Shown here in pieces: positions 22,775-63,471 of a stretch of 64,000 bases of DNA (position 1 is its first letter; every line of letters begins with the position of its first letter). The notes under the pieces are model-generated. The model made no database searches, had not been told where the DNA came from, and was given only the letters and a program-made list of their open reading frames with translations. Source of the stretch: Candidatus Multivorans sp. (GTDB lineage Bacteria; Acidobacteriota; Thermoanaerobaculia; Multivoradales; Multivoraceae); assembly GCA_965224025.1 (NCBI GenBank), contig OZ245033.1:1984001-2048000 (forward strand). The letters are read 5' to 3'. A program made the translations under genes and the position numbers.

Positions 22775-23001
22775 GACGTTCCTTCCCAGGAAGCCAGTTC
22801 GGCCTCATCCATCGCTTCGTCGAAGTCAGGCACGGTCTTGACCAGATAGGCCAGACTCCCGAAGCGGAACGCCTTCGACGACACCGGAACCAGCCTGACC
22901 GCGGGCTTGCCCCTGCGGGCGATGATCACGTCGTCGCCCGCTTCGGCGGCGACAATGAGCTTCGACAGTTGCGACTTGGCGGCGTGCATGTTGACGAGCA
23001 T
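22771..23001 (-). CDS. Phd/YefM antitoxin
   Basis: VNMHAAKSQLSKLI...DVIIARRGKPAVRLVP; GGAGGAGG RBS. Confidence 0.88.
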   Translation of the reverse strand: MLVNMHAAKSQLSKLIVAAEAGDDVIIARRGKPAVRLVPVSSKAFRFGSLAYLVKTVPDFDEAMDEAELASWEGTS

Positions 23002-23013
23002 TGCGCCCTCCTC

Positions 23014-23030
23014 CTAGCTAGTCTAGCTAG
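23014..23030. promoter_or_regulatory. Putative TA operator
   Basis: Two tandem CTAGCTAG palindromes immediately upstream of the antitoxin RBS. Confidence 0.5.
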
Positions 23031-23317
23031 ATCAGCGTAACAGCGAATCGTACTACGACCCGGCGCAGTCGCGCCGCTCAACGCCGATGAAGTGAATCGC
23101 GTGTGGAGCGGAGCCGGCCGGAAGGCCGGCGCACCTGTACCTTTCTCGGGTGGATTCTGGTGGGTCGTTGAGAGAGGTGGAATCGACCAGTAGCCGTCGT
23201 GGCTGCGGTAGCTGTGGGAAACCGGCTTGCCGGTTTTCCAAGGTCCGGCGGGAAACGGTCTGCCGTTTTCCGCCGGACCGGCAGCTTCCGCAGCCGGGAC
23301 CGCCGGTCGGTTTCGTT

Positions 23318-23501
23318 TCCGGCCTGCCGGAGTCACTGAAGGAAGGTCGGCAAGCAGCCAGGAGCGACCACCGGCGCACTGTGCTTCGAGCACCTGGCTG
23401 GGACCCGTGCCCTGGCTGCTTCGCCGCGTTGGACGCCCAGTGGAGAGTCAGTGCCTTAGAGCACCAGTACAGGTACGGGCAGGCAACGCGGCATGCCGAC
23501 C
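23318..23501 (+). ncRNA. Putative bridge RNA with target-binding and donor-binding loops, copy 1
   Basis: Outer stem 23345-52/23494-501; loop 1 holds CCGGCGCAC (23371-79) and CTGGG (23398-402); loop 2 holds GTGGAGAGTC (23440-49) and GTACAGG (23467-73). Confidence 0.85.
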
Positions 23502-23535
23502 AGGCAACACTACCGCAAGGGAGAAGGAGGACGAG

Positions 23536-24789
23536 ATGACCAGGACGTGGTTCGTCGGCGTGGACTGGGGGTCCGAGACCCACCACGTGTGTGTGCTGGA
23601 TCGGGACGGCAAGGTGAGGGGGGAGCGGGCGTTCGACCACAGCGGCAAGGGACTTGCCGCCATGGCCGACTGGCTCCTTGGACATACCCGACCGACGTCT
23701 CCGGACGAGATCGGCGTCGCCATCGAGGTGCCGCACGGACCGGTGGTCGAGACTCTCCTGGAGCGGGGCTTCGCCGTGCATTCGATCAACCCCAAGCAGC
23801 TCGACCGCTTCAGGGACCGCTTCTCCGTCGCCGGCGCCAAGGATGACCGCCGCGATGCACGGGCGCTCGCCGCCGCGCTTCGCACCGACCCCGAGTGCCT
23901 GAACCGCGTGCAACCATCCGATGCAGCCATCGTGATGCTGCGCGAGGTGTCCCGCGGCCGCAAGCAGTTGGTCGGCCAGAAGAACCGCCTGGAGAACCAG
24001 GTCCGCGACCAGCTCTGGCGCTACTACCCGCAGTTTCTCGCCGTGGTCAAGAACGAGGTGTCGGCGCCCTTCGCGCTGGCCTTGTGGCGACTGGCGCCGA
24101 CCCCCGGCAAGGCTCGACGGCTGCGCGAAGCCACGCTCGCCAAACTGCTCAAGGAACACCGCATCCGGCGCCTGACCTCCGCCCAACTGCGCGATCAACT
24201 GCGGGCCGAGCCGATCGCCGTTTCCCCGGACACCGTTAAGGCCGCCGTCGAACACATAGGACTCCTCCGGCCGGTGCTCGACACCGTCTGCCGCCAACTC
24301 GCCGACGCCGACAAGCGGCTGGAGCGGATGACCCGCGCACTCGAGGCCCCGGCCCAACGGGAAAACGACGACGACTCCCCTAAGCCGAGCGACGCCGCCA
24401 TCCTCAGGTCGCTGCCCGGACTCGGCAAGGTCGGCCTCGCCACCCTGCTCTCCGAGGCCGATCAAAGCCTGGGCCGCAGAGACCACGAGGCACTGCGTTG
24501 CCTCTGCGGAGTGGCGCCGGTGACCGTCAAGTCCGGCAAGAAGCTCATCGTCATGCGACGACTCGCCGCCAACGAACACCTCAGCGACGCCGTCTATCAC
24601 TGGGGACGAGTCGCCATCCAGCACGACCCGATCAGCCGCGCCAAGTACGACGCCATGAAAGCCCAGGGAAAGACGCACGGACGCGCCATCAGACAACTCG
24701 TCGACCGACTCCTCGGCGTCGCCTGCGCCATGCTCCGAGACCGAACTCTCTTCGACCCCAACAAGCGATGCCATGCCCAGGTCGCATGA
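23536..24789 (+). CDS. IS110-family DEDD recombinase (417 aa)
   Basis: FVGVDWG, VAIE, KDDRRDA (DEDD); SLPGLG, GVAPVTVKSGK (Tnp domain, serine); AAGGAGG RBS. Confidence 0.95.
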   Translation: MTRTWFVGVDWGSETHHVCVLDRDGKVRGERAFDHSGKGLAAMADWLLGHTRPTSPDEIGVAIEVPHGPVVETLLERGFAVHSINPKQLDRFRDRFSVAGAKDDRRDARALAAALRTDPECLNRVQPSDAAIVMLREVSRGRKQLVGQKNRLENQVRDQLWRYYPQFLAVVKNEVSAPFALALWRLAPTPGKARRLREATLAKLLKEHRIRRLTSAQLRDQLRAEPIAVSPDTVKAAVEHIGLLRPVLDTVCRQLADADKRLERMTRALEAPAQRENDDDSPKPSDAAILRSLPGLGKVGLATLLSEADQSLGRRDHEALRCLCGVAPVTVKSGKKLIVMRRLAANEHLSDAVYHWGRVAIQHDPISRAKYDAMKAQGKTHGRAIRQLVDRLLGVACAMLRDRTLFDPNKRCHAQVA

Positions 24790-24851
24790 CCTCCCTGACC
24801 CGCAGCAGCCTCCCCAAAACACACTTGCTAAAGGGTGGAGAGTCCCAGTAG

Positions 24852-36561: not shown

Positions 36562-36838
36562 AGGAAGGTGTGACTCTAGCTGAGTTGTAGCTCGGAGGAT
36601 GGTCGCCGCTTTGCGGCGGGTCTTTTCCCAGAAGCCGGCCAGAGGGCCGGCGCACCTGTACCTTTCCGGGATGCATTCTGGCGTGTCGTTGAGAGAGGTG
36701 GAATGGACCAGTAGCCGTCGTGGCTGCGGTAGCTGTGGGAAACCGGCTTGCCGGTTTTCCAAGGTCCGGCGGGAAACGGTCTGCCGTTTTCCGCCGGACC
36801 GGCAGCTTCCGCAGCCGAGACCGCCGGTCGGTTGCGTC

Positions 36839-37022
36839 TCCGGCCTGCCGGAGTCACTGAAGGAAAGTCGGCAAGCAGCCAGGAGCGACCACCGGCGCAC
36901 TGTGCTTCGAGCACCTGGCTGGGACCCGTGCCCTGGCTGCTTTGCCGCGTTGGACGCCCAGTGGAGAGTCAGTGCCTTAGAGCACCAGTACAGGTACGGG
37001 CAGGCAACGCGGCATGCCGACC
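36839..37022 (+). ncRNA. Putative bridge RNA, copy 2
   Basis: All four guide segments identical to copy 1 (CCGGCGCAC at 36892-36900). Confidence 0.82.
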
Positions 37023-37056
37023 AGGCAACACTACCGCAAGGGAGAAGGAGGACGAG

Positions 37057-38312
37057 ATGATCAGGACGTGGTTCGCCGGCGTGGACTGGGGGTCCGAAAC
37101 CCACCACGTGTGTGTTTGCTGGGTCGGGACGGCAAGGTGAGGGGGGAGCGGGCGTTCGACCACAGCGGCAAGGGACTTGCCGCCATGGCCGACTGGCTCC
37201 TTGGACATGCACGACCGACGCCTCCGGGCGAGATCGGCGTCGCCATCGAGGTGCCGCACGGACCGGTCGTCGAGTGCCTCCTGGAGCGAGGCTTCGCCGT
37301 CCATTCGATCAACCCCAAGCAGCTCGACCGCTTCAGGGACCGCTTCTCCGTCGCCGGCGCCAAGGATGACCGCCGCGATGCACGGGCGCTCGCCGCCGCG
37401 CTTCGCACCGACCCCGAGTGCCTGAACCGCGTGCAACCATCCGATGCCGCCATCGTCATGCTGCGCGAGGTGTCCCGCGCCCGCAAGCAGTTGGTCAACC
37501 AGAAGAACCGCCTGGAGAACCAGGTCCGCGACCAGATCTGGCGCTACTACCCGCAGTTTCTCGCCGTGGTCAAGAACGAGGTGTCGGCGCCCTTCGCGCT
37601 GGCCTTGTGGCGACTGGCGCCGACCCCCGGCAAGGCTCGACGGCTGCGCGAGACCACGCTCGCCAAGCTGCTCAAGGAACACCGCATCCGGCGCCTGACT
37701 GCCGCCCAACTGCGCGATCAACTGCGGGCCGAGCCGATCGCCGTTTCCCCGGACACCGTTAAGGCCGCCGTCGAACACATAGGACTCCTCCGGCCGGTGC
37801 TCGACACCGTCTGCCGCCAACTCGCCGACGCCGACAAGCGGCTGGAGCGGATGACCCGCGCACTCGAGGCCCCGGCCCAACGGGAAAACGACGACGACTC
37901 CCCTAAGCCGAGCGACGCCGCCATCCTCAGGTCGCTGCCCGGACTCGGCAAGGTCGGCCTCGCCACCCTGCTCTCCGAGGCCGATCAAAGCCTGGGCCGC
38001 AGAGACTACGAGGCACTGCGTTGCCTCTGCGGAGTGGCGCCGGTGACCGTCAAGTCCGGCAAGAAGCTCATCGTCATGCGACGACTCGCCGCCAACGAGC
38101 ACCTCAGCGACGCCGTCTATCACTGGGGACGAGTCGCCATCCAGCACGACCCGATCAGCCGCGCCAAGTACGACGCCATGAAAGCCGAAGGCAAGACACA
38201 CGGACGAGCCATCAGACAACTCGTCGATCGACTCCTCGGCGTCGCCTGCGCCATGCTCCGAGACCGCACTCTCTTCGACCCCAACAAGAGAAGCCATGCC
38301 CAGGTCGCATGA
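37057..38312 (+). pseudogene. IS110 recombinase with a +2 frameshift near 37116
   Basis: GTGTGTGT-TT-GCTGG here versus GTGTGTGT-GCTGG in copies 1 and 3. Confidence 0.88.
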
Positions 38313-38413
38313 CCTGCCTGACCCGCAGCAACCTCCCCAAAACACACTTGCTAAAGGGTGGAGAGTCCCAGTTTTCCAGAAGGGCGGCGCAGCCGGCTCC
38401 TGGGGGCCAACTT

Positions 38414-39614: not shown

Positions 39615-41315
39615 GTGACCGCCATCGAACTCCTGAACGCAGATCCCCTGCTAGCTGCCGCTCTGGACCGGCGCCGCCGCCAGTGGCGCGAGGCGGACGC
39701 TACAGTTCGCCTGTGGTCCGGCGACGGTTCGCTCTGGACGGATTCCGGCGAGGCGGAGTGGCTGGGTTGGCTCGACGTCGAGCGGCTCGGCCGCGTGTCG
39801 GTCTCGAAGCCTGACGGCGACCGCGTCGAGATGGCGGCTGCCGACCTTGCGGAGCATCTCGCCGGCCGACCCTTTGAACGCTGCCTGCTGCTCGGCATGG
39901 GCGGCTCGGCGCTCGGCGCGGACCTGCTCTGGCGGGCGCTGCCGCGCCGGGTCGATGCCGAGTACATCGTCCTCGACACGACGGATCCGCGGGAGATCGC
40001 GTCGGCTCTGGATGGTGTCGCGCCCGCGTCGTTGAAGGTCATCGCGGCGTCCAAGTCGGGCGGCACGATCGAAACGAGGCTGGCGTTCGAGCTGCTGCTC
40101 GACCGGCTGGGGCCGGCGGCTTCGTCGGCGGCGTTGGCGATCACGGATCCGGGCTCCGCGCTCGAAGAACGCGCCCGGGCCGCCGGTGCCGGGGTCGTCT
40201 TCGGCCACCCGGACATCGGCGGGCGGTTCTCCGTGCTGTCGGCGTTCGGCCTGGCGCCGGCGGCGGTAGCGGGCATCGACGTGGAGCCGCTTCTTGGGAG
40301 CGCGCGGGCGATGGCCGCGGCGTGCCGGCGCGGCGGAACGGATTCAGAGACGAACCCCGGGGTCGAGCTGGGGTTGCTGCTCGCGGCGGCGCACGACTGC
40401 GGCCGCGACAAGCTCTATCTTCATGCCCCGGCCAAGTGCGCGGCGATGGCCGCGTGGGTCGAGCAACTGATCGCCGAGTCCCTCGGAAAGGGCGACGTAC
40501 TGCTGTTGCCTGTCGCTGCGGCCGGCGTGCCGGCGGAGCCGAACCCGGACCGGCTCGACGTCGTGCTCGGAAACGTGAGTGGCAACGGTGCGCAGGCCTC
40601 GGCGCCGGTGCCTGACGGTCCGGTCGTCCGGATCGGCGCGGACCTTCCGGTCGACCTCGGCGGCGAGTTCTTCCGCTGGCAGTTCGCCACGGCCGTGGCC
40701 GGAGCACTGCTGGGCCTCAACCCCTTCGACCAGCCGGACGTGGAGTCGTCCAAGGTCGTCACCCGGCGCTACGTCGAGCGGATGAAGGCCGGCGATGCGC
40801 CGGCGCCCGGTGGCGTGGTCCGGCTGAGCGAGGTCAGCGAGCTAGGGCTCGCCCAGCTCCTGGGCACGCACCTCGGGACGTTCCCGGAGAGCGGCTACGC
40901 CGTCATCTCGGCCTATCTTGATCGCAGCGACCGCAACCGGGAGCTGCTCCAGACTCTGCGCCGGCGCGTCGCCGACGTCACAGGCGGCGCGTCCGTGCTC
41001 GGTTTCAGTCCGAGCTTCCTGCACTCGACGGGACAGGCGCACAAGGGCGGCCCCAACCGCGGTCTGTTCCTGCAGATCACCGCCGATCCGCCGGCTGCGG
41101 ACATCTCGGTTCCAGGCGTTGGCCTGACCTTCGGCCAGGTCCAGCTCGCCCAGGCCTGGGGCGACTACGAAGTGCTCGTCGAGCGGAAGCGTCGGGTGCT
41201 CGCCGTCCATCTCGACGGCGAGGTGGAGGAAGGGGTGCGGCGGTTGGTGACTGGGTGCGCCGGCGTCCCCGCCGGCTCGCCGCCGAAGGCGGCCAAGGAA
41301 ACGCGCCGGCCGTAA
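39615..41315 (+). CDS. pgi: Glucose-6-phosphate isomerase (TAL/PGI-type PGI domain)
   Basis: GMGGSALG, SKSGGTIET, DIGGRFSVLS, EQLIAESLGK, NPFDQPDVE, HSTGQAHKGG. Confidence 0.85.
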   Translation: MTAIELLNADPLLAAALDRRRRQWREADATVRLWSGDGSLWTDSGEAEWLGWLDVERLGRVSVSKPDGDRVEMAAADLAEHLAGRPFERCLLLGMGGSALGADLLWRALPRRVDAEYIVLDTTDPREIASALDGVAPASLKVIAASKSGGTIETRLAFELLLDRLGPAASSAALAITDPGSALEERARAAGAGVVFGHPDIGGRFSVLSAFGLAPAAVAGIDVEPLLGSARAMAAACRRGGTDSETNPGVELGLLLAAAHDCGRDKLYLHAPAKCAAMAAWVEQLIAESLGKGDVLLLPVAAAGVPAEPNPDRLDVVLGNVSGNGAQASAPVPDGPVVRIGADLPVDLGGEFFRWQFATAVAGALLGLNPFDQPDVESSKVVTRRYVERMKAGDAPAPGGVVRLSEVSELGLAQLLGTHLGTFPESGYAVISAYLDRSDRNRELLQTLRRRVADVTGGASVLGFSPSFLHSTGQAHKGGPNRGLFLQITADPPAADISVPGVGLTFGQVQLAQAWGDYEVLVERKRRVLAVHLDGEVEEGVRRLVTGCAGVPAGSPPKAAKETRRP

Positions 41316-41403
41316 GGCCGGCACTGCGAGCGGTCAGAGTGGAGCGAGGCTGGCGCCTCGCCGTTTCTTCTCAGAAGCCGGCGGGGACGCCGGCGCACCC
41401 AGT
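41250..41403. repeat. REPIN-like inverted REP doublet
   Basis: ACTGGGTGCGCCGGCGTCCCCGCCGGC (41250-76) and its exact reverse complement (41377-403). Confidence 0.85.
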
Positions 41404-41627
41404 GCGAGGCGCCGTGCCGAGAACCGGCGGGGACGCCGGCGCACCTGTACCTTTCTCGGGTGGATTCTGGTGGGTCGTTGAGAGAGGTGGAATCGACCAG
41501 TAGCCGTCGCGGCTGCGGTAGCTGTGGGAAACCGGCTTGCCGGTTTTCCAAGGTCCGGCGGGAAACGGTCTGCCGTTTTCCGCGGGACCGGCAGCTTCCG
41601 CAGCCGAGACCGCCGGTCGGTTGCGTC

Positions 41628-41811
41628 TCCGGCCTGCCGGAGTCACTGAAGGAAGGTCGGCAAGCAGCCAGGAGCGACCACCGGCGCACTGTGCTTCGAG
41701 CACCTGGCTGGGACCCGTGCCCTGGCTGCTTCGCCGCGTTGGACGCCCAGTGGAGAGTCAGTGCCTTAGAGCACCAGTACAGGTACGGGCAGGCAACGCG
41801 GCATGCCGACC
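41628..41811 (+). ncRNA. Putative bridge RNA, copy 3
   Basis: Guide segments and stems identical to copy 1. Confidence 0.83.
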
Positions 41812-41845
41812 AGGCAACACTACCGCAAGGGAGAAGGAGGACGAG

Positions 41846-43099
41846 ATGACCAGGACGTGGTTCGTCGGCGTGGACTGGGGGTCCGAGACCCACCACGTGT
41901 GTGTGCTGGATCGGGACGGCAAGGTGAGGGGGGAGCGGGCGTTCGACCACAGCGGCAAGGGACTTGCCGCCATGGCCGACTGGCTCCTTGGACATACCCG
42001 ACCGACGTCTCCGGACGAGATCGGCGTCGCCATCGAGGTGCCGCACGGACCGGTGGTCGAGACTCTCCTGGAGCGGGGCTTCGCCGTGCATTCGATCAAC
42101 CCCAAGCAGCTCGACCGCTTCAGGGACCGCTTCTCCGTCGCCGGCGCCAAGGATGACCGCCGCGATGCACGGGCGCTCGCCGCCGCGCTTCGCACCGACC
42201 CCGAGTGCCTGAACCGCGTGCAACCATCCGATGCAGCCATCGTGATGCTGCGCGAGGTGTCCCGCGGCCGCAAGCAGTTGGTCGGCCAGAAGAACCGCCT
42301 GGAGAACCAAGTCCGCGACCAGATCTGGCGCTACTACCCGCAGTTTCTCGCCGTGGTCAAGAACGAGGTGTCGGCGCCCTTCGCGCTGGCCTTGTGGCGA
42401 CTGGCGCCGACCCCCGGCAAGGCTCGACGGCTGCGCGAAGCCACGCTCGCCAAACTGCTCAAGGAACACCGCATCCGGCGCCTGACTGCCGCCCAACTGC
42501 GCGATCAACTGCGGGCCGAGCCGATCGCCGTTTCCCCGGACACCGTTAAGGCCGCCGTCGAACACATAGGACTCCTCCGGCCGGTGCTCGACACCGTCTG
42601 CCGCCAACTCGCCGACGCCGACAAGCGGCTGGAGCGGATGACCCGCGCACTCGAGGCCCCGGCCCAACGGGAAAACGACGACGACTCCCCTAAGCCGAGC
42701 GACGCCGCCATCCTCAGGTCGCTGCCCGGACTCGGCAAGGTCGGCCTCGCCACCCTGCTCTCCGAGGCCGATCAAAGCCTGGGCCGCAGAGACCACGAGG
42801 CACTGCGTTGCCTCTGCGGAGTGGCGCCGGTGACCGTCAAGTCCGGCAAGAAGCTCATCGTCATGCGACGACTCGCCGCCAACGAACACCTCAGCGACGC
42901 CGTCTATCACTGGGGACGAGTCGCCATCCAGCACGACCCGATCAGCCGCGCCAAGTACGACGCCATGAAAGCCCAGGGAAAGACGCACGGACGCGCCATC
43001 AGACAACTCGTCGACCGACTCCTCGGCGTCGCCTGCGCCATGCTCCGAGACCGAACTCTCTTCGACCCCAACAAGCGATGCCATGCCCAGGTCGCATGA
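41846..43099 (+). CDS. IS110-family DEDD recombinase
   Basis: Differs from copy 1 by about 2 residues. Confidence 0.95.
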   Translation: MTRTWFVGVDWGSETHHVCVLDRDGKVRGERAFDHSGKGLAAMADWLLGHTRPTSPDEIGVAIEVPHGPVVETLLERGFAVHSINPKQLDRFRDRFSVAGAKDDRRDARALAAALRTDPECLNRVQPSDAAIVMLREVSRGRKQLVGQKNRLENQVRDQIWRYYPQFLAVVKNEVSAPFALALWRLAPTPGKARRLREATLAKLLKEHRIRRLTAAQLRDQLRAEPIAVSPDTVKAAVEHIGLLRPVLDTVCRQLADADKRLERMTRALEAPAQRENDDDSPKPSDAAILRSLPGLGKVGLATLLSEADQSLGRRDHEALRCLCGVAPVTVKSGKKLIVMRRLAANEHLSDAVYHWGRVAIQHDPISRAKYDAMKAQGKTHGRAIRQLVDRLLGVACAMLRDRTLFDPNKRCHAQVA

Positions 43100-43162
43100 C
43101 CTCCCTGACCCGCAGCAGCCTCCCCAAAACACACTTGCTAAAGGGTGGAGAGTCCCGGTGGG

Positions 43163-58966: not shown

Positions 58967-60355
58967 ATGAGGCAATTCAAGACGTTGCGAGGAGCTTGCG
59001 CGGCGGAAACTGGGTGCGCCGGCGCCCCCGCCGGCATCCGGTGCGAAGCGTCGGCCTTCTGTAGTTCTGCCGCCGTAGCGCTAGCGGTTGCCGCCGGCTG
59101 CTTACTTCTGATCGCCTGCGGGTCCACCGAACTCGTCACTCTGCCGGAGATCGACACCTCCGGTTCGCCGGACGGCATCGTCGACCTTCCCGCCGACGCG
59201 CCCGAGGTGTTCCACAAGTACTTCGACCGGTACGCCTGGTTCCCGACGCCGGACGGCAGGCGGATCCACTTCCTCGTCTCGAGCGGCTGGACCCGCGACC
59301 AGATCAAGCACGGCCTCAACGTGATGGAGCATCTGCTGGCGGACCACCCGGGCTCGGTCTACGGCGACGACAAGTCCGGGATCGCCGTGGCGATGGCGGA
59401 CCGCAAGGCGACGATGGTGTTCTTCGACACGGAGGACGACCTGCGCCAGGCGATGAGCGAGGGACTGGCCGACGCGACGGATCTCAGCATGCAGGACCTG
59501 CGCGCGAACGAATGTCCGGCCCCGGGCGACGCGGACTACATGGGTCATGTGACCAGGGACGCCGCCTACGAGGAGATCTGGCACCTGATCCACGACTACG
59601 GGATCAAGCCGACCCTCACTTCGATGATCGCCGAGATGAGGACGGCGAACGACGAAGCGGCGACCAAGAGCTGGTACGCGTGGCCCCGTGACGTGCCGGA
59701 CGACCATCCGAACGAGTACATGGGCGCCCTGATCGACAACTACTACGACCTCTGGACGGTGCCGCCGACCGTGTACGAGGGGCGCGACATCGCGCCCGAC
59801 GAGATTCCCGAGGGATACTCCCACTTCGGGCAGTACTTCGCGGGCAGTCGCGCGGCCATGCCGGAGAAGGACCCGCTCGGCTACGCGTTGGTCACGAACT
59901 TCGTCGGGCCGTATCTGACCTACACGCCGGAACTGCCGCTGGACTTCAGCGGCACGTTCTCGATGACGTTCGCCCCGGAGGTGCGGTACACGATGAAGAC
60001 CCAGCATCTGCGGAACGTCGCGCTCACCGGCGACGGCGACGCGGACCTGCGCGGCAACGCTCACGACAATGTGCTCACCGGCAACGGCGGCGCCAACCGG
60101 CTCGAGGGCGGCGGCGGCAACGACATGCTTGACGGCGGCGACGGCGACGACACGGCGGTCTTCTCGGCCCCGGCGGCCGAGTACGAAGTCGCCGCCGGTG
60201 AGGACGGAGTGACGGTGACCGACTCGCAGCCGGACCGCGACGGGACGGACACGCTGCGAGCGGTTGAGTTCCTGCAGTTCAGCGATGCCCTCGTGGACCA
60301 GGTGGGCGGTCGGGTCTGGGAGCGCGGCGTGCAACTGGACCAGCCGGAACAGTAG
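58967..60355 (+). CDS. Lipoprotein with zincin-like EEIWH domain and RTX-type calcium-binding repeats
   Basis: LIAC lipobox; YEEIWH; GGGGNDMLDGGDGDD; DGTDTLRAVEFLQFSD. Confidence 0.75.
   Translation: MRQFKTLRGACAAETGCAGAPAGIRCEASAFCSSAAVALAVAAGCLLLIACGSTELVTLPEIDTSGSPDGIVDLPADAPEVFHKYFDRYAWFPTPDGRRIHFLVSSGWTRDQIKHGLNVMEHLLADHPGSVYGDDKSGIAVAMADRKATMVFFDTEDDLRQAMSEGLADATDLSMQDLRANECPAPGDADYMGHVTRDAAYEEIWHLIHDYGIKPTLTSMIAEMRTANDEAATKSWYAWPRDVPDDHPNEYMGALIDNYYDLWTVPPTVYEGRDIAPDEIPEGYSHFGQYFAGSRAAMPEKDPLGYALVTNFVGPYLTYTPELPLDFSGTFSMTFAPEVRYTMKTQHLRNVALTGDGDADLRGNAHDNVLTGNGGANRLEGGGGNDMLDGGDGDDTAVFSAPAAEYEVAAGEDGVTVTDSQPDRDGTDTLRAVEFLQFSDALVDQVGGRVWERGVQLDQPEQ
59009..59035 (-). repeat. Single REP (unoccupied IS110 target) inside a CDS
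   Basis: ACTGGGTGCGCCGGCGCCCCCGCCGGC. Confidence 0.8.
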
Positions 60356-63346: not shown

Positions 63347-63471
63347 ACTGGATGCGCCGGCGTCCTCGCCGGCTGCCGCCGCAGGCGGCCAGGAACACGC
63401 GCCGGCCGACGGCCGGCACCTTCGCTTCGCGGCGGCGCCCGGATGCCGGCGAGGACGCCGGCGCACCCAGT
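63347..63471. repeat. REPIN-like inverted REP doublet between convergent genes
   Basis: ACTGGATGCGCCGGCGTCCTCGCCGGC / GCCGGCGAGGACGCCGGCGCACCCAGT; spacer homologous to that of 41250-41403. Confidence 0.85.

Follow-up and report, generated by a model that had tools for sequence, protein, structure and literature searches.

Recombination guided by a bridge RNA has been in print since 2024, with IS621 from Escherichia coli described (PMC11208160, PMC11208158) as the founding bridge recombinase working with a 177-nt bridge RNA. PMC11208160 also gives the rules by which the sides of the two loops are assigned to DNA strands in IS621, reports that the CT core of IS621 is conserved in target and donor, and describes IS1111-group elements as having 7–17-bp subterminal inverted repeats and a long right end that encodes the RNA. 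In ISPpu10 from Pseudomonas putida, according to the abstract of 10.64898/2026.03.19.712850, the sequence matched by the RNA has a GC-rich stem-loop on its 5′ side. Bridge RNAs of non-canonical shape were catalogued at scale in a 2026 preprint, and supplementary catalogues belong to PMC11208160, 10.1101/2025.05.14.653916 and 10.64898/2026.10.21.760802.

The element described here lies in a 64,000-nt stretch of DNA from Candidatus Multivorans sp. (contig OZ245033.1), hereafter the window. It is a well-supported new example of an IS110 bridge system, and its mechanism is not new; the earlier note rated the novelty too high, since the mechanism is already published and the protein family carries the name 'RNA-guided transposase' at NCBI. 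The clade of the element is found mainly in Acidobacteriota. Literature searches turned up no paper that names this clade, though such a paper may exist.

Element anatomy, target sites and recombinase

The element contains 1708 bp (window positions 23136–24843, + strand), and the dinucleotide CC is duplicated on both its flanks (Table 1). The left end opens with TGTAC from 23136 and the right end closes with ...GTGGAGAGT at 24843. There is no inverted repeat between the ends themselves (TGTACC... and ...GGAGAGT), and a 5-bp inverted repeat (CCTTT at 23140–44, AAAGG at 24830–34) flanks the donor words. The window contains three copies, and the genome 14 that have both ends; all 14 carry CC on both sides, sit in one type of site and are 97–100% identical to each other. 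The 417-aa ORF is intact in 10 of the 14, with 0–12 amino-acid differences and identical donor loops, while the other four have altered ORFs of 27 aa (L012) or 433 aa (L009, L013 and L014), L013 and L014 also carrying deletions in the leader. Both junctions of the copy at 23136–24843 are bridged by contigs of the public run X1, possibly the source sample.

Table 1 Features of the element and its surroundings in the window. Positions are those of the window.
Feature	Position	Strand	Basis
Target of the element, written GCCGGCGCA-CC-CAGT			Sequence form of the site
Left flank: REP-like hairpin GCCGGCC-GGAA-GGCCGGC (23113-23130), then GCA	23113-23133	+	
Left target word CCGGCGCA(C)	23126-23134	+	Sequence
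Left core dinucleotide CC	23134-23135	+	CC at both ends in 14/14 complete copies
Left end, non-coding, 400 nt, begins TGTACCTTTC	23136-23535	+	Read from sequence
Leader, one long hairpin with conserved two-hairpin inner module	23141-23344	+	Fold
Bridge RNA (predicted), 157 nt	23345-23501	+	Fold and orthologue covariation
Outer (closing) stem of bridge RNA	23345-52 / 23494-501	+	Fold
Arm 1, target-binding (predicted), cap 23381-93	23353-23420	+	Fold
Left target guide CCGGCGCAC(U)	23371-23380	+	Target top-strand sense, so bottom-strand pairing
Right target guide (G)CUGGG, 23397-23402	23397-23404	+	Pairs with top strand CCCAG(C/T)
Arm 2, donor-binding (predicted), cap 23451-64	23423-23492	+	Fold
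Left donor guide GUGGAGAGUC (DNA GTGGAGAGTC)	23440-23449	+	Equals right-end tip plus first core base
Right donor guide GUACAGG, 23467-73	23467-23475	+	Reverse complement of CC+TGTAC
Ribosome-binding site AAGGAGG	23524-30	+	Sequence
Recombinase gene, 417 aa plus stop	23536-24789	+	PF01548, PF02371, NF033542
Right end, 54 nt, tip GTGGAGAGT at 24835-43	24790-24843	+	Sequence
Right core CC (24844-45), then right target CAGT	24844-24849	+	Sequence and copy comparison
Copy 2 (L012), cores included; ORF broken early, 27 aa from start codon	36655-38368	+	
Unoccupied target site CCGGCGCACCCAG	41390-41402	+	Site search of genome
Copy 3 (L002), cores included; intact 417-aa ORF	41444-43155	+	
More unoccupied window sites	41251-41263, 59010-59022, 63458-63470	-, -, +	

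The insertion site of every complete genome copy is a REP-like sequence, GCCGGCG(C/T)A-CC-CAG(T/C), with the right flank of copy 3 reading CCCGG in place of CCCAG. The genome harbors 44 unoccupied 13-mer sites of this kind, and the reversed control pattern gave 0 and 1. Target hairpins were scored by an explicit stem count, which replaced a comparison of minimum free energy (MFE) with shuffles that did not discriminate in such GC-rich DNA (−16.0 vs −13.1); a perfect hairpin of at least 6 bp overlaps the left target at 28 of the 44 unoccupied sites, compared to none of 44 random positions. Position 23377 of the left target guide is C or T among the copies, and this guide polymorphism (C/U) coincides with the polymorphic position of the genomic target repeat. 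Within the genome the C/T variant of the guide is not associated with that of the target (Fisher p 0.58), as would be expected of an RNA acting in trans, and this result gives no support to guiding. Occupancy of the T-variant sites within the genome gave p 0.086, and no higher occupancy is claimed.

The protein possesses the domains PF01548 (2.1e-33) and PF02371 (1.1e-12) and matches the equivalog NF033542, 'IS110 family RNA-guided transposase', with 176.5 bits against a cut-off of 140. Residues D10, E64, D104 and D107 align with D11, E60, D102 and D105 of IS621, and S333-G334 with S241-G242 (catalytic residues named as in PMC11208158), these six residues being invariant in 25 relatives. The protein model has a pLDDT of 85.8, with low confidence in the loop 330–341; the S241 loop of IS621 has been described as mobile. 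The best 10 Foldseek matches are chains of IS621 and ISCro4 (E 3e-11 to 6e-10, TM 0.59–0.62 on the target), the closest structures being IS621 8wt9/8wt6 (E 3e-11, TM 0.6 on the target). In the model, the RuvC and Tnp domains are separated by a region of approximately 130–270 that contains extra short helices at 165–222.

The coordinates and sequence words given in the earlier note for ends, cores and guides all match the sequence, its three copies in the window were found as described, and an unoccupied site lies at 41390–41402. Its description of a 417-aa protein with the DEDD residues and the Tnp-domain serine agrees with the domain matches, the IS621 alignment and the invariance among relatives.

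Bridge RNA fold, guide words and their covariation

The MFE fold of 23318–23501 consists of an outer stem holding two arms with two GUGC..GCAC caps (−91 kcal/mol, z −2.97, one of 200 shuffles folding as well). Among 41 orthologous RNAs, 90.3% of stem cells are paired, compared to 33.5–43.9% when the partners are slid; both sides have changed at 26 of the 40 stem pairs, and none of 500 shuffles reaches any of the five covariation measures. These counts use a curated structure that was partly derived from the window sequence, for which the slid-partner control is a partial remedy. There are G-U pairs on the + strand (e.g., GU in 16 rows at pair 14/83), hence the fold is strand-specific. The RNAalifold consensus, in which the outer stem was missing and the guide words themselves contained two short helices, was dropped. 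A search of Rfam 15 with E up to 10 returned eight weak matches far below the gathering scores and none on the bridge RNA, so there is no Rfam 15 family for it.

Upstream of the bridge RNA lies the leader, whose fold reaches −136.2 kcal/mol (z −9.78) and is equaled by none of 200 shuffles. This 200-nt leader is found in the Thermoanaerobaculia branch of the clade. A module resembling its inner one is present in the relatives L044, L106 and L040, and the inner module also recurs inside unrelated IS21-like elements.

Loop 1 holds the left target word together with the reverse complement of the right target, and loop 2 holds the word of the right-end tip and the reverse complement of the left end, that is, the junction. 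The words are located at 23371–79 (CCGGCGCAC), 23398–402 (CTGGG), 23440–49 (GTGGAGAGTC) and 23467–73 (GTACAGG), and they agree in strand rule and guide length with what has been published for IS621 (PMC11208160), with the 5′ sides of the loops in top-strand sense (9–10 nt) and the 3′ sides being reverse complements (5–7 nt). The last U of the left target guide would form a U-G wobble at the second core position, and the right target guide is only 5–6 nt long. Of 20,000 mononucleotide shuffles of the 400-nt left end, 117 contained the 9-mer, 12 the 10-mer, 595 the 7-mer and 12,405 the 5-mer; a match to the 5-mer alone is meaningless, and no shuffle contained all four words. The two loops also contain handshake dinucleotides: AC (23403–04) in the target loop is complementary to the donor GT adjoining the core, and the U of UA (23474–75) in the donor loop is complementary to the A adjoining the target core.

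Of 94 loci, 85 yielded both ends, and these fall into 32 target-loop classes. The rows left out were L090, in which the 5′ part of the RNA is replaced, L055, L066, L081 and L093, with the right end absent from the locus, L061, L069 and L071, whose left ends (TGTACG/TGTACA) were missed by the motif, and L103, a cut locus. Loops were parsed by alignment columns, earlier parsing by regular expression having missed 10 of 80 loci. Across the 32 classes, the longest word shared by a loop and its own flank is 7.62 on the left and 5.91 on the right, with the permuted values being 4.21 and 3.81 and none of 10,000 permutations reaching the observed ones; the covariation also holds in a subset of 12 unlike targets. 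The class L096 is a misfit, its site and its own guides sharing words of only 3 and 2, the left match is only 6 nt long for the C-rich targets L050, L065, L077 and L092, and the right 'flank' scored for L068 and L077 is in fact another left end. The scaffold stays constant while the targets are unrelated, e.g., GGGGTC-CC-TTTTC, GCGAT-CC-ATTTG and GTGTCA-CC-GGCAC.

The donor loop also follows its own DNA: the left donor guide shifts with the right-end tip in relatives (GTGGGAAGT, GTGGGGAGT, GTAGGGAGT), and in L094 and L102 the right donor guide AUACAGG comes with the left end TGTAT. The handshake nucleotide of the donor loop is complementary to the base adjoining the target core, target position 7, in 84 of 85 loci and in 10 of 11 distinct combinations (pairs U:A, G:C and C:G), while the target-loop handshake A facing the donor T is constant in all 84 parsed loci, thus complementary without covariation. 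The CC core is present in all 85 loci with both ends, a result partly imposed by the end-finding rule, which required CC.

The outer stem with two capped arms proposed in the earlier note is thus recovered by the MFE fold and upheld by stem covariation in the 41 orthologues, its guide words in both arms are confirmed in position and do not co-occur in shuffled sequence, and the guide–target covariation it suggested as a check was positive on both sides. Its reading of the locus as an IS110 element with a bispecific bridge RNA stands on the stem, guide–flank and handshake covariation, as well as on the protein family, the protein fold and the published strand rules.

Proposed mechanism and competing explanations

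Given the observed anatomy, RNA structure, guide–DNA complementarity and covariation, together with the family, residues and fold of the protein, the element is very probably an IS110-group insertion sequence moving by bridge-RNA-guided, serine/DEDD-catalysed site-specific recombination. From the IS621 literature we infer how the RNA would be synthesized and bound and how the chemistry, the circle and the junction promoter would operate. The element would excise as a circle, its right and left ends joined through a single CC core (GTGGAGAGT-CC-TGTAC). The right end contains a candidate −35 word, TTGCTA (24825–30, + strand), and the left end a candidate −10 word, TACCTT (23138–43, + strand), which is weak, with 3/6 identity to the consensus; in each of 26 class representatives, a TTGACA/TTGCAA/TTGCTA word stands equally far from the tip. 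The circle junction would set the TTGACA-like word 17 nt from TACCTT. A scan of the integrated copy for sigma-70-like promoters found none, and the arrangement at the junction would itself fall short of the thresholds of that scan. The junction probably joins these −35-like and −10-like words, and by bringing them together it is proposed to drive transcription of the leader, the bridge RNA and the recombinase mRNA. The bridge RNA (23345–23501) would then bind the recombinase, its donor loop pairing with both strands of the junction and its target loop with both strands of the REP-like site, and strands would be exchanged at the CC core with the aid of the handshake dinucleotides.

The structured left end could instead be a cis-regulatory mRNA leader only, with the protein picking its site by the REP-like hairpin. 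The RNA does lie directly upstream of the ribosome-binding site, a hairpin carries the target on its 3′ arm at 28 of the 44 empty sites, and the abstract of 10.64898/2026.03.19.712850 reports that a target stem-loop adds to the specificity of ISPpu10. However, loop 1 varies with the flanks over 32 classes with unrelated targets and a constant scaffold, which a protein-only code would not predict, and this explanation is considered very improbable; hairpin recognition and RNA guiding can also coexist as a dual match. It is next to negligible in probability that the left-end DNA, as single-stranded hairpins or a cruciform, mimics the recombination sites with no RNA involved. Covariation reports pairing within a strand and cannot separate RNA from single-stranded DNA, but the many G-U pairs on the + strand are in keeping with RNA, the structures of the IS621 and ISCro4 homologues were solved with bridge RNA, and NCBIfam places the protein in an RNA-guided family.

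It is also unlikely, at a lesser degree of improbability, that this is a genuine bridge-RNA insertion sequence that is no longer mobile in the genome, i.e., a relic family. The altered ORFs and leader deletions mentioned above would fit a relic, as would the fact that no precise excision or circle joint was seen in the contigs of four public runs, a result which is uninformative rather than negative because contigs break at repeats; the joints that were listed (e.g., 22954 to 24296) have short sides of 21–37 letters and were given no weight. Against a relic stand the 10 intact ORFs with few differences and identical donor loops, the close identity of the copies and the many sites still unoccupied. 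Recent activity of the bridge-RNA-guided element is plausible because its copies are 97–100% identical and 10 of 14 ORFs are intact. The system may also be reprogrammable; indirect support comes from the way loop 1 varies in nature while its scaffold is conserved.

Significance and relation to known systems

With this element, an uncultured acidobacterial lineage contributes a natural bridge recombinase that is fully annotated: its guide words, core, handshakes and target repeat are all mapped, as are dozens of relatives retargeted in nature. It provides a candidate orthogonal CC-core tool for genome rearrangement and a data set on natural target-loop drift, with the understanding of the mechanism remaining unchanged. 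That the clade represents a structurally distinct bridge system, with a closing stem, an enlarged coiled coil and a hairpin-led RNA, is a tentative suggestion and rather doubtful. The closing stem may form a three-way junction holding the target and donor loops on one molecule, and the near-perfect 200-nt hairpin might be a processing or insulating signal setting the 5′ end of the RNA. If so, assembly would differ, with one RNA bridging in cis as opposed to the loops from two RNAs described for IS621, and RNA maturation would differ from that in the systems studied.

Like IS621, the element encodes a protein in which a DEDD RuvC-like domain is combined with a coiled coil and with a Tnp domain containing the catalytic Ser-Gly, and the long left end encodes the RNA, in which the target loop precedes the donor loop. 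In each loop the 5′ side pairs with the bottom strand (8–9 nt) and the 3′ side with the top strand (4–7 nt), the 2-nt core is duplicated at both ends, and the bases that bind the core are followed by handshake dinucleotides. The basal stem has a bulged A in both systems, and REP-type targets and a candidate −35 word in the right end are likewise shared. Despite that, the proteins are only about 20% identical and 417 aa vs 326 aa in length, and the inter-domain region spans approximately 130–270 in the model compared to the coiled coil at 123–188 of IS621. A closing stem of 5–8 bp joins the 5′ and 3′ ends of the RNA around both arms here, whereas the description of the IS621 RNA features a 5′ stem-loop and a flexible linker, and the clade adds the leader hairpin before the RNA. 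The core is CC here and CT in IS621; the CC seen in 85 loci, partly imposed by the end-finding rule, places the element outside the IS621 subgroup, in which CT is conserved.

The bridge recombinases ISCro4/IS622 (PDB 9t56; 10.1101/2025.05.14.653916), which are close relatives of IS621, have the same fold and domain order (E 2e-10), and the protein described here is equally distant from them and from IS621. ISPpu10 is likewise an IS110 element, and its repeated intergenic target carries the stem-loop mentioned above; such a hairpin is present here at 28 of the 44 empty sites. The recombinase family and the RNA-guided principle are common to the IS1111 group (PMC11208160), but membership of that group is ruled out by the 54-nt right end, the location of the RNA in the 400-nt left end and an inverted repeat of only 5 bp.

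Copies of the element and the repeat it occupies

The three copies in the window are 1708-1710 bp in size, start with TGTACCTTTC and finish with GGTGGAGAGT, and the ends and flanking CC could be read at each of them, which agrees with the three IS110 copies with a CC core proposed in the earlier note. A search of the genome (5.14 Mb, 3 contigs) with a 1710-base element query gave 27 DNA matches including 12 spanning the whole query and two copies with internal left-end deletions, the others being fragments. Fourteen copies possess both ends, ten of them with an intact 417-aa ORF (0-12 differences), three with an ORF of 433 aa, the C-terminus of which is changed, and one with an ORF broken after 27 aa. 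Some 80-90 nt of the leader hairpin are missing from two copies of this genome, L013 and L014, which measure 1616 and 1628 bp. No second IS110-type recombinase was found in the genome. A 5-bp inverted repeat lies on either side of the donor words and is longer than the subterminal repeat of 2-3 bp given for the IS110 group in PMC11208160.

All 14 two-ended copies have the left flank ...GCCGGCG(C/T)A-CC, and all save one (CC-CGG) have the right flank CC-CAG(T/C); taking out the element with one CC restores the site GCCGGCG(C/T)ACCCAG. The genome contains 44 empty 13-mer sites, 40 of them with C and 4 with T, and four of the 44 lie inside the window; the reversed control gave 0 and 1. A perfect hairpin of at least 6 bp (consensus GCCGGCgg-Gga-cGCCGGC) has the left half of the site as its 3′ arm in 28 of the 44 empty sites and in none of 44 random positions, so the target is a REP-like repeat.

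Window coordinates of the element copies and of the parts of copy 1
Feature	Position	Strand	Description
Element copy 1	23136-24843	+	CC both sides
Element copy 2	36657-38366	+	CC both sides; early frameshift in ORF
Element copy 3	41446-43153	+	CC both sides
Inverted repeat, left	23140-23144		CCTTT
Leader	23141-23344		Non-coding left end, 5′ of bridge RNA
Leader inner module	23188-23311		GGCTGCGGTAGCTG...CAGCTTCCGCAGCC
Bridge RNA	23345-23501		Closing stem and two arms
Left target guide, loop 1	23371-79	+	CCGGCGCAC, left target with first core C
Right target guide, loop 1	23397-402	+	(G)CUGGG, reverse complement of CCCAG(C)
Left donor guide, loop 2	23440-49	+	GUGGAGAGUC, right-end tip with one core C
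Right donor guide, loop 2	23467-73	+	GUACAGG, reverse complement of CC+TGTAC
Recombinase ORF	23536-24789	+	417 aa; PF01548, PF02371
Inverted repeat, right	24830-24834		AAAGG

Two-arm RNA and its guide words

Within the 400-nt left end, the bridge RNA region folds into a closing stem holding two arms, each built from a basal stem with an internal loop and a capped hairpin. When the left end was shuffled 20,000 times, the 9-mer guide word turned up in 117 shuffles, the 10-mer in 12, the 7-mer in 595 and the 5-mer in 12,405, while all four never occurred together. The U located 3′ of the left target guide could wobble-pair, at the second core position, with G of the bottom strand.

Protein relatives of similar length number in the thousands (7748 with E ≤0.001 among 8000 scored). 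Species-representative genomes yielded 504 encoding stretches, the best 80 of which were kept, and these belong mostly to Candidatus Multivorans, other Thermoanaerobaculia and Vicinamibacterales, a few being from Rhodothermales, Azospirillum, Lichenibacterium, Rhodospirillales and Binatota. When 41 distinct upstream RNAs were aligned, 90.3% of cells were paired under a curated 40-pair structure vs 33.5-43.9% with slid partners, 26 of the 40 pairs had changes on both sides, and no shuffle out of 500 attained any of five measures. Compensatory pairs amount to 10/12 in the arm 1 basal stem, 6/9 in the arm 2 basal stem and 5/8 in the closing stem, which has only 67.7% paired cells and breaks down in the few non-acidobacterial rows. 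Since G-U pairs are frequent, the fold is specific to the + strand. Variability within the alignment is highest in the loop 1 guide columns, and loop 2 is conserved, as is likewise described for IS621 relatives in PMC11208160. In one relative, L090, unrelated sequence takes the place of the bridge RNA's 5′ part with both loops, the 3′ stem and the gene being kept.

Covariation of the guides with target and donor DNA

The search for element ends relied on the conserved left-end motif together with the locus's own donor word plus CC; it succeeded in 85 of 94 loci, and these form 32 target-loop classes. The longest word common to the 5′ side of loop 1 and the left flank averages 7.62 nt vs 4.21 permuted, and for the right flank and the 3′ side taken as its reverse complement the values are 5.91 vs 3.81; none of 10,000 permutations reached the observed values on either side, and the relation was upheld when the test was confined to 12 classes whose targets are unlike. 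The guide-target covariation proposed as a check is thus present across orthologues, as in the loops AGGGGTCCC / GAAAAGG (site GGGGTC-CC-TTTTC), AAGCGATCCC / CAAATGG (GCGAT-CC-ATTTG) and CGTGTCACC / GTGCCGG (GTGTCA-CC-GGCAC), with a match of only 6 nt at several C-rich sites. Right-end donor words vary jointly with the ends (GTGGAGAGT, GTGGGAAGT, GTGGGGAGT, GTAGGGAGT), and the donor guide AUACAGG goes with the left end TGTAT; the donor-word test is partly circular because the guide served as the search word, but an exact 11-mer is not expected by chance in about 1.4 kb. Right ends of several hundred nt, vs 54 nt in the window element, occur in L050, L056, L062, L071 and other Vicinamibacterales loci, with element sizes of 1.6-1.97 kb; the tip in L071 lies 2297 nt downstream of the protein-match start.

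According to PMC11208158, each loop holds two nucleotides, 3′ of its core-binding bases, that pair with the other of the two DNAs once strands have been exchanged. In the target loop, the AC following GGG is complementary to the donor GT beside the core and constant in 84/84 parsed loci. The first such base of the donor loop is U, G or C opposite A, C or G beside the target core, and complementarity was found in 84/85 loci and, since many loci are copies of one another, independently in 10 of 11 distinct combinations, L099 being the misfit.

An exception to target matching is L096 from a Vicinamibacterales MAG, the site of which (..GCGGTC-CC-ACTTGG) misfits its own loop AAAGTCACCC / CCTTCGG and resembles the sites of the L093/L056 classes; the element may have inserted with the RNA of another element in trans, or its guide may have changed by drift once it was in place. 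Guide position 23377 is the same position as the C/T variation of the target repeat and is C in nine genomic copies, including window copy 1, and T in five, as well as T in contigs of four public runs. As U it pairs with either target variant (A, or G by wobble) and as C with only one. Guide and target variants show no association among the genomic copies (p 0.58), which an RNA acting in trans would lead one to expect. In L068 and L077, CC and then TGTAC come immediately after the right-end tip, so that a second left end adjoins the right end and a right-end/left-end junction lies within chromosomal DNA; this points to tandem copies arranged head to tail or to an integrated junction.

Recombinase, putative expression and relation to IS621

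The recombinase exceeds the cut-off score of NCBIfam NF033542 ("IS110 family RNA-guided transposase"), and the only solved structures matched by its sequence are IS621 and ISCro4 (E 2e-11 and 1.5e-9). Residues D10, E64, D104, D107 and S333-G334 line up with the IS621 catalytic residues as named in PMC11208158 and none of the six varies among 25 relatives, confirming the DEDD residues and Tnp serine ascribed to the protein earlier. The AlphaFold model built from the relatives' alignment (pLDDT 85.8, pTM 0.80) comprises a RuvC-like domain up to about residue 124, long helices 130-163 and 231-270 around five short helices (165-222), and then a helical C-terminal domain with a low-confidence serine loop. 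Foldseek placed IS621 and ISCro4 chains on top (E 3e-11 to 6e-10) followed by TIGR-Tas and Nop5-type proteins, as expected from published work. The nearest plasmid-borne relative, from Sinorhizobium fredii NGR234 (54.5% identity), is annotated only as "IS110 family transposase".

The word TTGACA/TTGCAA/TTGCTA is found at a fixed distance from the right-end tip in each of the 26 class representatives examined. In the circle form the TTGACA-type word would stand 17 nt from the left-end TACCTT, and such a junction promoter may drive expression of the element, IS621 excision being reported to restore a sigma-70 promoter (PMC11208160). The candidate −10 TACCTT is weak, and no promoter passed in a scan of the integrated copy.

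In the Thermoanaerobaculia branch the leader is 200 nt long and forms one long hairpin (−136 kcal/mol, z −9.8), a feature unlike IS621; its two-hairpin inner module is retained in L044, L106 and L040, and the Vicinamibacterales relatives have only about 40 nt with a small stem-loop 5′ of the RNA. The module also occurs at five more places of the genome (L018-L021, L027; 86-91% identity) without an IS110 element, with repeated words TGTTGGCAAC...GGAAAGTGAGCC 5′ of it in 4/5 flanks. Because IstB-like and IstA-like ORFs adjoin the module in L019, these extra copies seem to lie inside IS21-like elements.

As described for IS621 in PMC11208160, the target loop comes first and the donor loop second, each loop's 5′ side has the top-strand sense and pairs with the bottom strand over 8-9 nt, and the 3′ side pairs with the top strand over 4-7 nt, core included. 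The element differs in its CC core (CT in IS621), in an intervening region between the RuvC and Tnp domains about 75 residues longer, and in the closing stem around both arms, whereas IS621 is described with a 5′ stem-loop and a flexible linker, its loops being supplied in the complex by two RNA molecules. A 2026 preprint reports clustering 181,180 IS110-adjacent intergenic sequences, many of its covariance models being unlike IS621 in shape while still co-varying with target and donor, and the abundant clade of the element may well be among these. The kind of system is already known, and its variant features are of modest interest.
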